From: a virus
Lineage: Duplodnaviria; Heunggongvirae; Uroviricota; Caudoviricetes
DNA length: 39,263 nt
Virus record (IMG/VR): IMGVR_UViG_2506520037_000005
Location: 1 to 39,263 of that record
Reading direction: 5' to 3' (one strand)
Below are positions 10,145 through 14,655 of this stretch, piece by piece. The notes under the pieces are model-generated. The model ran no database searches and was not told the DNA's origin. It saw nothing but the letters and a program-made list of their open reading frames with translations. Position 1 is the first letter of the stretch. Each line of letters starts with the position of its first letter. The translations under genes and the position numbers were made by a program.

Positions 10145-10711
10145 TCAGGGGGATTCATTACTCTTATTTGCCGGAAATTTTCTATAAATTGTGGAAACAC
10201 CCACATCAAAAATCAGTGCAATACGCTGTCTTGATTCTCCGGCCTCGAGTAAGCGTCCAATCTGTGCCCACTGTTCGGTGGTCAACTTAGGACGGCGTCC
10301 ACCTACTCTGCCTTTGGCGCGAGCTGCAGCAAGCCCCGCCCTGGTACGTTCAACTATCAGTTCGCGTTCCATTTCAGCCAGGGCACCCATGACATGAAAA
10401 AAGAAACGGCCCATTGGGGTACTGGTATCAATACTGTCAGTCAGGCTTCGGAAATTCACACCTCGCTGGCGCAACTCTTCTATCAACGTAACAAGATGCC
10501 GCATACTGCGCCCCAACCTGTCCAGCTTCCAGACAACCAAAGTGTCACCTGCCGATAATGTCCTGAGCAGTTTTTTCAGTCCCGGTCTGTCGGACTTAGT
10601 GCCACTGATTTTGTCCTCAAAAATCCGCTCACATCCCGCGCAGTTCAGCGCATTACGTTGCAAATCGGTGTTCTGGTCATTTGTTGACACGCGTACATAG
10701 CCAATAAGCAT
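10145..10711 (-). CDS. Serine DNA invertase (Gin/Hin/Pin/Cin family)
   Basis: MLIGYVRVSTNDQNTDLQRNAL... with catalytic-serine motif and C-terminal HTH; near-collinear with Mu Gin as recalled. Real start is probably the ATG giving MLIGY (188 aa). Confidence 0.9.
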   Translation of the reverse strand: MLIGYVRVSTNDQNTDLQRNALNCAGCERIFEDKISGTKSDRPGLKKLLRTLSAGDTLVVWKLDRLGRSMRHLVTLIEELRQRGVNFRSLTDSIDTSTPMGRFFFHVMGALAEMERELIVERTRAGLAAARAKGRVGGRRPKLTTEQWAQIGRLLEAGESRQRIALIFDVGVSTIYRKFPANKSNESP

Positions 10712-10766
10712 GATCAATCCCCTGAATAAAAACCGGGGATGATGCCAGTTAGCCGTTATCTCTGCA

Positions 10767-10792
10767 TTTTCATAAACGTTGGTTTGGGAGAA
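10767..10792. other. Invertase crossover site, right (26-bp imperfect palindrome, gix/hix-like)
   Basis: TTTTCATAAACG TT GGTTTGGGAGAA; its right 14 bp are identical to the inverted copy inside gene H; lies 55 bp from the invertase start. Confidence 0.75.
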
Positions 10793-11122
10793 GCCAGATA
10801 TGTCATTCAGCGAGGAGCTAATGCCAATGGTGCATGGATACGCTGGTCAGATGGTGCAATAGAAGTATTTGGAACCGGTGGATCTAATGATAATGGACTG
10901 GCTAAAGTTGTTTACCCAATTGCACTGCCTAAACTTTCACGTTTTATCAGTATCGCGGAAAGAATAAGAACGGATTACGAGAGCACACCTAATAATGTTC
11001 ACGTTTCAATGATCGTGGATGATCAGGTAACAAATACCGGCTTTTATGCCCGCTGCCAGATGTACGACGGCAGACCATCATCAAATGCTTTTTCCTGGAG
11101 GGTTTATTGTGCGCCTGTTTAA
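10781..11122 (+). CDS. Promoterless alternative tail-fibre C-terminal segment (Sv'), expressed only after inversion
   Basis: The plus-strand ORF reads GLGE... in the same frame and from the same shared 14-bp core as the H gene; inversion would fuse the H constant part to this 113-codon segment. Confidence 0.6.
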   Translation, partial: GLGEARYVIQRGANANGAWIRWSDGAIEVFGTGGSNDNGLAKVVYPIALPKLSRFISIAERIRTDYESTPNNVHVSMIVDDQVTNTGFYARCQMYDGRPSSNAFSWRVYCAPV

Positions 11123-11141
11123 TCCAGTTACTTTGTAGTGG

Positions 11142-12040: not shown

Positions 12041-12319
12041 GAGCGCGGTAGCCTTTTTTAATATCGTATTTTGTTCCTCCAGACGGCGAACTTGCTTTTC
12101 CAGCTCGCGGATACGTTGCTGGTCTGGAGTAATGGGTGTGGCAGAGGGCGTAATACCCTGGCGCTCTCGCCTGAGCTGGCGTACCCAGCTCTCAAGCGTG
12201 GTTGAACCGACATTCATCGCTTCACTGGCCTGTCGATATGAGTAGCCCTTATCAACAATCAGCTGTGCACATTCCAGCCTGAACTCAGGGGTGAAGGTTC
12301 GTTTGGTTTTCTTGTTCAT
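12008..12319 (-). CDS. IS3-family transposase OrfA (HTH)
   Basis: [28 protein letters not shown]... resembles IS911 OrfA as recalled; A_AAA_AAG slippery motif near its 3' end (about 12053-12059). Confidence 0.85.
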
Positions 12320-12535
12320 TAAGTCACCTGTTTTGTGTTGTGGTGAGAATATCACCTTTCATCAGGTGGCCAAATTTAGTGTGCCACTACACTTTGACTG
12401 AAGTAATCCCCGGTCTTCATGACGTGACCGGGGCTATTGAATTACCGGAGGACAACTGGTTTTTTACTATGACAGAAATTCCTCAGGGCATGGAGCTAAC
12501 AATTAATGAGAAAGGCGAACCAATACTAATTGAGG

Positions 12536-13141
12536 TTAATCAGTCTCAGGGAATACAGGCCAAATAATATCAGGCGCGGTGCTGGTATCTGTTGCCGTCA
12601 CCGCGTCAGTGTAATCCAGCACAGCGTTAAGCCGGGTTGTTTCTGCCTGCGTCAGTTTCCGCCCGGCCTGTAATTTCAGCTGAATCAGACTAATGGAAGC
12701 CATTGCTGCATCAATCAGTGACTGACGCTGTGCTTCTGCCGCTTCTACTGCGGCACCGTGTTGTGCCTCAGTATCCGTCACCCATTTCTCACCATCCCAT
12801 TTATCGTATGGCGTTAATGGGGCGATAGTGGTTGTATTATCAGGGTAATTACCCGGAGCTGTGATTTCTTTTGATTCTCCTGTTGCGGTGCTAAAGACGA
12901 TTTCACCGCGATGGTCTGGCACATATTCCCATGAGTTAAAATCTGCAGAACGGCAGATTGTATAACCAGCTTTGTATGCGCCTGGAGCATCTAAACAGGA
13001 ACATGCCGGAATGCCGACACCAACGGCAAGATATTCAGTCGATATGGAAATATATTCCCGTGTTTCACCATCATAATTATAGACAGTAATATTCCCCGCC
13101 TTCGTGGCAATAAACTCGCTATTTAATACAGTGCTATCCAT
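12536..13141 (-). CDS. G: Tail fibre assembly protein (gpG/Tfa)
   Basis: 201-aa ORF immediately downstream of the tail fibre gene with 1-bp overlap. Confidence 0.8.
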   Translation of the reverse strand: MDSTVLNSEFIATKAGNITVYNYDGETREYISISTEYLAVGVGIPACSCLDAPGAYKAGYTICRSADFNSWEYVPDHRGEIVFSTATGESKEITAPGNYPDNTTTIAPLTPYDKWDGEKWVTDTEAQHGAAVEAAEAQRQSLIDAAMASISLIQLKLQAGRKLTQAETTRLNAVLDYTDAVTATDTSTAPDIIWPVFPETD

Positions 13142-14655
13142 TATGCAGCCCTCACAATGTAGTTAAATGCGATGTTGCGTGGACGGACACCGAAATAAGA
13201 AGTAACACCATTCATTGTCAAATTTCCAGAGCCAAAAGCGGTAAAACCAGAACCAGCATTAACTGCCGAATCCGCGTTTCTGACAAAGTTTTTGGGAGGT
13301 GAACCGGAGACACCAGCCGAAATATCATCAGCATTACCGCCATTGCCGTGGTGGTTAGTTATCTTTGTTTCCGCCTGCGCCGTCAACAAACCTCGTCCAG
13401 AGTCAACCCCGCGCCCGTCATCCCAGCCGCGAATAAACTCACCACGTAAATCAGGCAATTTATTTGCCGGATAAGCCTTTGCCAGTTCCGGGTATTCTTC
13501 AGCAGAAAAAGCCGCGCCGTTGCATTTCAGCCAGCCTGTTGGCGGAGTGGCGGAAGGCCATGGAACAGGGACACCAACGGGTAATGCAGAGCCTTCTCCC
13601 AAACCAAGGTATGCGAGAAGACCAGCTACATCCTTTCCACTCAAATTGGTAAGCGTATTGTCCAGCGGTTGTTTACCTGCCAGCGCATTAAGCATTGTCG
13701 TGGCAAAGTTCGGATCATTCCCCAGTGCCGCCGCCAGTTCGTTCAGTGTATCCAGTGCCGCAGGTGCAGAACCCACCATTGCTGCAATCGCTGATTTCAC
13801 AAAAGCTGTAGTGGCAATCTGTGTATTGTTGACCGACTGTGCCGCAGTAGGTGCTGTTGGCGTTCCGGTGAGTGCCGGACTCGACAGCGGTGCTTTTAGT
13901 GCCAGCGCATTGTTAATGGTGGTACTGAATTTCGGGTCATTGTTAATGGCTGCGGCAATTTCTTTCAGTGTGTCCAGCGTGGCTGGCGCACCGTTAATCA
14001 GAGCAGTAATAGCGGCCTGAACAAACTCAGTGGTCGCAATCCGCGTGGTGTTATTTCCTGCTGCAGGCGTCGGCGCTTTTGGTTCTCCGGTAAATGTCGG
14101 ATTATGTTTCTGCGCATACTGGGTATGAGGATCTTGTGCGGCAATGTGGTTTCTCATCTGGTCATCCACATACAGCTTTAATTCCAGGACTTCATCATCC
14201 ACGTATTTACGGGTTGCCAGCACTACAGCAGGGTCGATTTTCAGGGTGATATTGTCCGTACTGCTGGTAATCAGCACCATGCGCACGGTCTGGGTGCGCC
14301 CGCTGCCTTCAGCCAGTTGCGGCTTATAGCTTTCCGGGCAGTTGCCCACGGCAATCAATGCCCCGGACTCATCAAACAGGCCCACTTCACGTATCCACCA
14401 ACCGCCCTCGTTTTCAGGGATCACCTGTTCAGCAATAATCTGGCTGCTGTTCTGCGGGTCGATATAAAGCATATTCAGCGCAGCCCGGCGTTTCTCATTT
14501 ACCAGTGCCGTCTGCTTTGCGTCCGGCGTTGGCAATACTCCGCCGCCATCGCCCACCGCCATATGGGTAATTTTTAGCGGCACACCGAGCGCGGCGGCGC
14601 TGGCAAGTTTCGCCGCGCCAATATCCGTCAGCAGGGTATAAAATTTTGTGCTCAT
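13141..14655 (-). CDS. H: Tail fibre protein H (constant N-terminus plus invertible variable C-terminus)
   Basis: 504-aa ORF with repeated alanine-rich motifs (AAAINNDPKF / AAALGNDPNF) and a WLKCNGAAFS...YPELAKAY fibre tip; a crossover site lies within it. Confidence 0.85.
   Translation of the reverse strand: MSTKFYTLLTDIGAAKLASAAALGVPLKITHMAVGDGGGVLPTPDAKQTALVNEKRRAALNMLYIDPQNSSQIIAEQVIPENEGGWWIREVGLFDESGALIAVGNCPESYKPQLAEGSGRTQTVRMVLITSSTDNITLKIDPAVVLATRKYVDDEVLELKLYVDDQMRNHIAAQDPHTQYAQKHNPTFTGEPKAPTPAAGNNTTRIATTEFVQAAITALINGAPATLDTLKEIAAAINNDPKFSTTINNALALKAPLSSPALTGTPTAPTAAQSVNNTQIATTAFVKSAIAAMVGSAPAALDTLNELAAALGNDPNFATTMLNALAGKQPLDNTLTNLSGKDVAGLLAYLGLGEGSALPVGVPVPWPSATPPTGWLKCNGAAFSAEEYPELAKAYPANKLPDLRGEFIRGWDDGRGVDSGRGLLTAQAETKITNHHGNGGNADDISAGVSGSPPKNFVRNADSAVNAGSGFTAFGSGNLTMNGVTSYFGVRPRNIAFNYIVRAA
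13594..13619. other. Invertase crossover site, left (inside gene H)
   Basis: TTCTCCCAAACC AA GGTATGCGAGAA, an inverted copy of the site at 10767-10792 with a matching central dinucleotide. Confidence 0.75.

Follow-up and report, generated by a model that had tools for sequence, protein, structure and literature searches.

A Gin-type inversion locus very probably switches the tail-fibre tip of a P2/186-like prophage from the Escherichia coli W lineage

We studied a DNA stretch of 39,263 bp (IMG/VR virus record IMGVR_UViG_2506520037_000005, here called the window and meaning the stretch at its full length), which contains a complete P2/186-like prophage and, at one side, some chromosomal DNA with the genes grxA, ybjM and ybjL. 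We conclude with high confidence that the tail-fibre gene H and its neighbours form a two-state site-specific inversion switch of the Gin type. Two inverted 26-bp sites enclose a segment with two alternative fibre tips, each of which is in frame with the constant part of gene H; a gene for a serine DNA invertase homologous to Gin of phage Mu lies next to the segment; and both orientations of the segment are found in deposited Escherichia coli genomes, with the junction at the dinucleotide predicted from the sites. The original prediction, which was made from the letters of the window, had described the locus as a layout like the Mu G segment on a P2-type tail, and the in-frame tips, the position of the invertase outside the segment and the presence of both orientations all agree with that description. 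The positions of the features are given in Table 1.

A repeat finder returned a 27-nt inverted repeat (I2, 10767-10793 versus 13593-13619) that was 81% complementary and ranked as the second-longest inverted pair in 4.9 kb, behind the ends of an insertion sequence (IS, see below) only. The exact run common to both sites was 15 nt long, TTGGTTTGGGAGAAG, and the number of exact inverted 15-mers expected by chance in 4.9 kb is about 0.011. Read in the sense of the fibre gene, the site next to the invertase gene consists of the half-site TTCTCCCAAACC, the dinucleotide AA and the reverse complement of TTTTCATAAACG, and the site within gene H of TTCTCCCAAACC, AA and the reverse complement of TTCTCGCATACC. 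The layout is thus 12+2+12, i.e., two imperfect 12-bp half-sites about a 2-bp core, as in the gix sites of Mu. On the plus strand the central dinucleotides are TT and AA, and they are identical when the two sites are read in the same sense. Two inverted 26-bp sites with matching central dinucleotides, one placed 55 bp from the invertase start and the other inside gene H, had been proposed before this analysis; the coordinates agree with that proposal, and both sites fit the gix layout read from Mu and form the inverted repeat I2, while the identical core, then given as 14 bp, has to be corrected to 15 nt. When the window was searched for half-sites with up to two mismatches, neither the segment nor its surroundings yielded a third site: three isolated matches elsewhere were no more than expected by chance, and the search otherwise returned only the three half-sites of the two known sites. 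A shufflon-like arrangement with a third site, as in one prophage of enteropathogenic E. coli (EPEC), was ruled out by this search.

To follow the reading frame of gene H through the sites we inverted the segment in silico, cutting between positions 10779 and 10780 and between 13606 and 13607 and replacing the interval by its reverse complement. The product of gene H changed from 504 residues (...LLAYLGLGEGSALPV...) to 463 residues (...LLAYLGLGEARYVIQRG...) with no break of the frame, and the two products had residues 1-349 and the following GLGE in common. Both are annotated in RefSeq; in E. coli W the 463-residue form is WP_000104786.1, named 'phage tail protein'. The constant region ending in ...LLAYL therefore continues in frame into either tip, as had been predicted, with lengths of 155 and 114 residues in place of the estimates of about 155 and about 113. 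The tip in current use is followed by a gene whose product matched the Pfam family Caudo_TAP (E=1e-31) and PHROG 105, 'tail fiber assembly' (E=1.5e-95). The alternative tip matched the C-terminus of PHROG 2557 (E=3e-22) and, weakly, other tail-fibre PHROGs; its match to the Pfam family Gp53-like_C was also weak and fell under the curated cut-off. A tblastn search found homologues of this tip in only 3 of 50,697 phage records.

Comparison with public genomes showed that both states exist. The window inverted in silico holds positions 977490-988169 of E. coli W (NC_017664.1) as an exact substring of 10,680 bp, which indicates that the segment has flipped within this lineage. We then surveyed 5,426 complete E. 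coli genomes with 680-bp junction probes, counting matches over at least 80% of the probe, and found the junction of the window type in 228 of them and the inverted junction in 34. At 100%, the window junction was present in four assemblies that bear the IS (CP026085, which is labelled 'DH5alpha', B-766, HBUT-L and hubt-sl) and in three near-identical prophages free of it (N44, DETEC-P881 and 82.0311), and the inverted junction in four assemblies with the IS (two of E. coli W, KO11FL and CM135829, the last again labelled 'DH5alpha') and in two IS-free ones (82.0312 and EC43). A 49-nt string spanning the inverted junction occurred in all three inverted loci examined, and the observed junction coincided with the predicted core dinucleotide. 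In the annotated loci of W and CM135829 the fibre gene encodes the 463-residue product, and the collar tip and its assembly gene are silent and adjoin the invertase gene. Detection of a single orientation had been named in advance as the outcome that would speak against a switch; the genomes gave the opposite, with the inverted product exact in E. coli W, in KO11FL and in the second 'DH5alpha' assembly. Note that the IS is at one and the same place in both orientation classes, so that at least one inversion took place later than its insertion.

The invertase has 188 residues when counted from the ATG at 10711 annotated in RefSeq (the list of open reading frames, ORFs, gives a TTG at 10717 and 190 residues). 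It contains the Pfam domains Resolvase (residues 5-137, E=2e-53) and HTH_7 (residues 140-183), matched PHROG 125, 'DNA invertase' (E=9e-101), and had Mu Gin as its top match among solved structures (3uj3, E=8e-93, residues 1-184). In a global alignment with Gin of Mu (NC_000929) 138 of 193 amino acids were identical (72%). The nucleophile Ser9 is kept within the motif YVRVSTNDQ, and K46, K47, R50, Q150, R153 and L154 (numbered as in Hin minus 1) are all present. In Hin, the corresponding residues K47, R48 and K51 of helix B and Q151, R154 and L155 of helix 1 of the DNA-binding domain have been tied to activation by Fis and the enhancer, and conservation of these residues is peculiar to the DNA invertases of that comparison, namely Hin, Gin and Cin (PMC3798978). 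The gene has the tail-fibre assembly gene on one side and the sheath gene FI on the other, i.e., it is at the position of the Z/fun hotspot of P2 as described in bioRxiv 10.1101/2024.10.15.618418. A Gin/Hin-family serine invertase at the Z/fun position had been claimed from the start, and the domains, the homology to Gin and the place before FI confirm it. Such genes are common: about 1,900 of the 5,426 E. coli genomes had a blastn-level homologue over most of the invertase gene.

Table 1. Coordinates of the tail-fibre inversion locus and associated features in the window
Feature	Position	Strand	Remarks
RybB small RNA (sRNA)	2700-2778	+	adjoins ogr (2856-3074); marks attachment site
Gin/Hin-family serine DNA invertase	10145-10711	-	188 residues; outside invertible segment; RefSeq WP_000905033.1
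Candidate Fis-binding 15-mer GCGCGGGATGTGAGC	10627-10641	-	nt 71-85 of invertase gene; weak lead
Invertase-proximal site (gixR-like), 26 bp	10767-10792	.	plus strand TTTTCATAAACGTTGGTTTGGGAGAA; 55 bp from invertase ATG
Invertible segment	10780-13606	.	2,827 bp between crossover points; 1,566 bp without IS and its duplication
Silent alternative tip, 114 residues once fused (GLGEARYVIQRG...)	10780-11122	+	in frame upon inversion
65-residue gene, 5' fragment (8 codons; gene at U' position)	11109-11133	+	severed by IS
IS3-family element	11134-12391	-	1,258 bp; Pfam HTH_Tnp_1 and rve; ends IS911-like
65-residue gene, 3' fragment	12392-12567	+	RefSeq: 62-residue ORF from GTG 12379 in IS end
Tail-fibre assembly protein, 201 residues, cognate to current tip (P2 G / Mu U equivalent)	12536-13141	-	
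Variable tip in current use, 155 residues (GLGEGSALPV...)	13141-13606	-	Pfam Collar, residues 361-408 of 504
Site within tail-fibre gene H (gixL-like), 26 bp	13594-13619	.	plus strand TTCTCCCAAACCAAGGTATGCGAGAA; encodes ...AYLGLGE...
Constant part of fibre gene H, codons 1-349	13607-14655	-	Pfam Phage_tail_fib N-terminal domain, E=7e-65

The anatomy of the segment stood as predicted, except that an IS3-family element within it, and the gene that this element splits, had been overlooked. The element has the terminal inverted repeats TGTAGTGG...CCACTACA (I1), is flanked by 3-bp CTT target duplications (11131-11133 and 12392-12394) and carries orfA and orfB, annotated in RefSeq as 'IS3 family transposase, programmed frameshift'. 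A unit 100% identical to it occurs in many plasmids. RefSeq and PLSDB name it 'IS3 family' alone; we take its orfA to be IS911-like, yet it is clearly not IS911 itself, and we left the element unnamed. The E. coli W genome paper counts two copies of IS911 and three of IS3, without positions (PMC3032704). Within the 5' part of the orfA region (12201-12323, minus strand) Rfam reported isrC, an Hfq-binding sRNA, with 150 bits; given its location, this 'sRNA' match is here simply part of the IS.

When the IS and one CTT were deleted from the window, the sequence matched that of strain N44 over 9,440 bp but for a single base, and the interrupted gene was restored as an ORF of 65 residues identical to WP_001440573.1 of N44. 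It starts with a GTG at 11109, and its first 14 nt also belong to the end of the alternative tip. The intact protein matched PHROG 5400, a family of unknown function (E=1.4e-25), and had no match in Pfam or NCBIfam; the family is rare among sequenced phages, tblastn finding homologues in 2 of 50,697 phage records. The gene is intact in N44, in 82.0312 and in phage S164. The GTG at 12379 from which RefSeq reads a 62-residue version is preceded by AGGTGG. In the orientation of the window the module in use, i.e., the collar tip and the Caudo_TAP protein, is intact, whereas in that of the W reference the tip in use is followed by the IS and then by the shortened small ORF. Since the IS splits the 65-residue gene, the two states are no longer equivalent, and in this lineage the alternative one is probably impaired. 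According to the E. coli W paper, no chromosomal gene of W was inactivated by an IS (PMC3032704); the split prophage gene is an exception to that statement.

We propose that inversion would proceed as follows. Dimers of the invertase would bind both 26-bp sites, which would then synapse, most likely with Fis bound to an enhancer that would lie, as in Mu, P1 and Hin, in the 5' part of the invertase gene; cleavage at the central AA/TT dinucleotide, rotation and religation would invert positions 10780-13606. The fibre gene of the late operon would retain codons 1-349 in both states. In state 1, that of the window, these would be followed by the 155-residue tip with the collar domain and then by the Caudo_TAP assembly protein, and in state 2 by the unrelated 114-residue tip and then by the 65-residue protein. 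After induction, virions from the two subpopulations would differ in their receptor-binding tips, and because the tips are unrelated and Mu offers a precedent, the host range would be expected to change between the states. In the lineage that bears the IS the DNA would still flip, the alternative state probably being defective or altered. As for Fis, the candidate 15-mer fits the pattern G-N2-YR-N2-W-N2-YR-N2-C and is at the same position in the gene as GTGCAGGATGTGAAC of Mu gin. Between the proximal site and the ATG of the invertase gene there is a terminator-like hairpin with a T-run (10731-10750, minus strand), also present in phage S164, which might insulate the invertase gene from read-through of the late operon.

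Some of our results weigh against a two-state switch of this kind, and other explanations have to be set beside it. The contrast between orientations was drawn from finished assemblies alone, and it could in theory reflect assembly artefacts or RecA recombination between short inverted repeats. Fifteen base pairs are too short for efficient homologous recombination by RecA. An exact repeat of that length is also far below the length of a read, the junction is exactly at the predicted Gin-type crossover, the eight independent assemblies with the IS split 4:4, and direct measurements have shown like loci of P2-like prophages to flip (PMC4272514), all of which makes such an origin scarcely credible. 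With a repeat too short to mislead an assembler and a junction at the core, site-specific inversion is the only reasonable reading. The enzyme is a different matter. Homologues of the invertase gene, that of Mu included, are found at three places in W genomes and at two in the 'DH5alpha' assemblies, so that more than one enzyme might act on the sites. Within this invertase family, one member can stand in for another. The segment might thus be flipped in trans by WMu Gin or by an enzyme of another P2-like prophage, the local gene being inactive or unexpressed. E. coli W indeed contains a Mu prophage as well as two more that are P2-like (PMC3032704), and an instance of Fin acting on the Salmonella H segment is cited in PMC4272514. 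A simple consensus scan, which has little power, found no sigma-70-like promoter in the 55-bp leader of the local gene, and promoter matches for the invertase and the silent tip were overall no more frequent than in shuffled sequences. Nevertheless, the local gene is intact and its product lacks none of the catalytic and regulatory residues; the gene is identical in all the relatives that bear the IS and in several without it, and sits by its site just as gin does; we therefore judge flipping in trans to be improbable and catalysis by the locally encoded enzyme the likely course. As to dependence on Fis, which the conserved residues suggest, an alignment with gin and a scan with the Fis motif gave the Fis-like 15-mer as the one shared candidate; no second Fis site was found, and nucleotide conservation with gin was not raised around the 15-mer.

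The IS bears on what the switch would achieve. With the gene behind the alternative tip split, it is doubtful that the two states truly give two host ranges in this lineage. The DNA may invert while the fibre of the inverted state, its module split by the IS, folds or assembles poorly, in which case the locus would act as an on/off switch and not as one of host range; we see this as a real possibility, though not the one we would favour. The IS takes away the first eight codons of the 65-residue ORF together with its translationally coupled start; in the IS-free relatives and in phage S164 the tip and the small ORF stay paired, suggesting that the small protein matters; and in Mu a second assembly gene, U', occupies the equivalent position. 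On the other hand, the 65-residue protein belongs to a family of unknown function without a Pfam or NCBIfam match, the 62-residue version that starts in the IS end is an open frame annotated in RefSeq and might still be made, and some fibre tips need no separate chaperone. A more specific form of the idea, which we hold as tentative and rather unlikely, is that a segment which goes on flipping with the IS inside alternates between a complete module and a tip without its 65-residue partner, i.e., a phase-variable loss of infectivity, or else that the GTG at 12379 supplied by the IS provides a start for the 62-residue variant. If the tip is uncoupled from its partner in this way, prophages with and without the IS would be a natural experiment on the small protein. 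The two-state tail-fibre switch remains our preferred reading of the locus as a whole.

The prophage around the switch is of the P2 type in its late region. The window differed from positions 3103309-3142571 of E. coli NZ_CP026085.1 by one mismatch in 39,263 bp, and the RefSeq gene order in the near-identical record was ogr, D, U, T, E, FII, FI, the switch, I, J, W and V, followed by S, R, the lysis genes, capsid, terminase, portal, A, CII, CI and int. The late genes are on the minus strand in P2 order (sheath gene FI at 8830-10002), the P2-type late gene set is present, and the Pfam domain Tail_P2_I and sheath domains were found. Within the 142 bp that separate the invertase gene from the sheath gene there is the dyad TGT-N12-ACA (TGTACCGTTATTCACACA, 10079-10096). 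We take this to be the form of the Ogr/Delta-dependent late promoter element of P2, so that it is probably the promoter of the FI operon. Beside CII and CI there is a truncated pseudogene of the Fil family (phage filamentation; RefSeq, 35027-35182, minus strand), which indicates an early region of the 186 type and not of the P2 type. The E. coli W genome paper places a prophage named 'Rybb*W (P2)' at rybB (PMC3032704), and the position of RybB beside ogr in the window agrees with it: the prophage is 'Rybb*W', the one that the E. coli W lineage has integrated at rybB.

In the old/tin hotspot of P2, flanked by the portal gene (25843-26868) and by the side of the replication genes, a GmrSD-type restriction endonuclease of 593 residues is encoded (26909-28690, minus strand), with NsnA as its top PADLOC match (E=8e-31). 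A KAP-family P-loop nucleoside triphosphatase of 483 residues (36679-38130, plus strand) lies between cI and int and matched the PADLOC candidate defence family PDC-S20 (E=4e-82); its place is the third of the hotspots in P2-like phages, by the CI regulator (bioRxiv 10.1101/2024.10.15.618418). Opposite to the late genes, between the baseplate gene V and a virion morphogenesis gene, there is an ORF of 307 residues (17148-18071, plus strand) for which NCBIfam, PHROGs and PADLOC returned no match and which is likely a moron; strain 82.0312 has a different gene at that place. Finally, the two 4.83-Mb assemblies labelled 'DH5alpha' (NZ_CP026085.1 and NZ_CM135829.1) both contain the W-lineage prophage with the IS, in opposite orientations, and their label looks doubtful for a K-12 derivative.

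In biological terms the locus adds little, as tail-fibre switching is textbook material and its operation in P2-like prophages of E. coli has been demonstrated. Its practical value is modest: it explains a 2.8-kb 'structural variant' that sets apart assemblies of the industrial W lineage which otherwise agree (W and KO11FL versus HBUT-L and others), a difference of orientation that should be taken as a sign neither of strain divergence nor of misassembly. In addition, the prophages with and without the IS, one base apart in 9.4 kb, form a clean pair for studying the role of the 65-residue protein.

Switching of tail fibres by an invertase is classically known from Mu (G/Gin), P1 (C/Cin) and e14 (P/Pin). 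The resemblance to Mu extends to an invertase 72% identical to Gin and lying outside the segment, 26-bp sites of 12+2+12 (in Mu, gix TTATCCAAAACC and TTCCTGTAAACC; NC_000929), a spacing between site and invertase start of 55 bp (54 bp between gixR and gin), a crossover in the fibre ORF at Leu-Gly-Leu-x-Glu (LGLGE here and LGLQE in Mu), and the order of a constant part, a tip with its assembly gene, and, on the opposite strand, a gene at the place of a second assembly gene and a tip. Unlike Mu, the phage is of the P2/186 type with the N-terminus of P2 gene H, the core dinucleotide is AA and not GA (TC/GA), the segment has only about half the length of G (1.57 kb when the IS is left out, versus about 3 kb), the alternative cassette consists of a 114-residue tip and a 65-residue protein of an unknown family instead of a second pair of the Caudo_TAP type, and an IS is present within the segment.

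Closer in phage family, in the position between fibre and sheath genes and in the kind of enzyme are the invertible loci of P2-like prophages, i.e., those of EPEC E2348/69 and the Fin system of Salmonella Fels-2 (Kutsukake et al. 2006, as cited in PMC4272514). For two P2-like EPEC prophages, Goldberg et al. (PMC4272514) found by sequencing that the orientations coexisted in cultures grown from single colonies; one of these loci has three sites and four variants, in contrast to the two sites found here. A DNA invertase is often seen at the Z/fun hotspot of P2, with the neighbouring genes inverted (bioRxiv 10.1101/2024.10.15.618418), and several deposited records of P2-like phages have a gene annotated as 'DNA invertase' next to those for tail fibres and tail-fibre assembly. 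The Peduovirus phage S164 shares the layout of invertase, homologous tip, small ORF, assembly gene and H. In the literature searched we found no description of the rybB prophage of E. coli W or of its alternative cassette. Salmonella Hin is similar in enzyme family and in the conserved residues of Fis/enhancer contact; it differs in lying inside its own segment, in flipping a promoter and not a coding tip, and in having no role in tail fibres. The layout and the AA core of the hixL site, as we assume them to be, match the sites described here. The kind of switch is thus well known, common and already described for P2-like prophages, and only details of this one are unusual, namely an IS in a segment that went on flipping and a poorly characterised alternative cassette.

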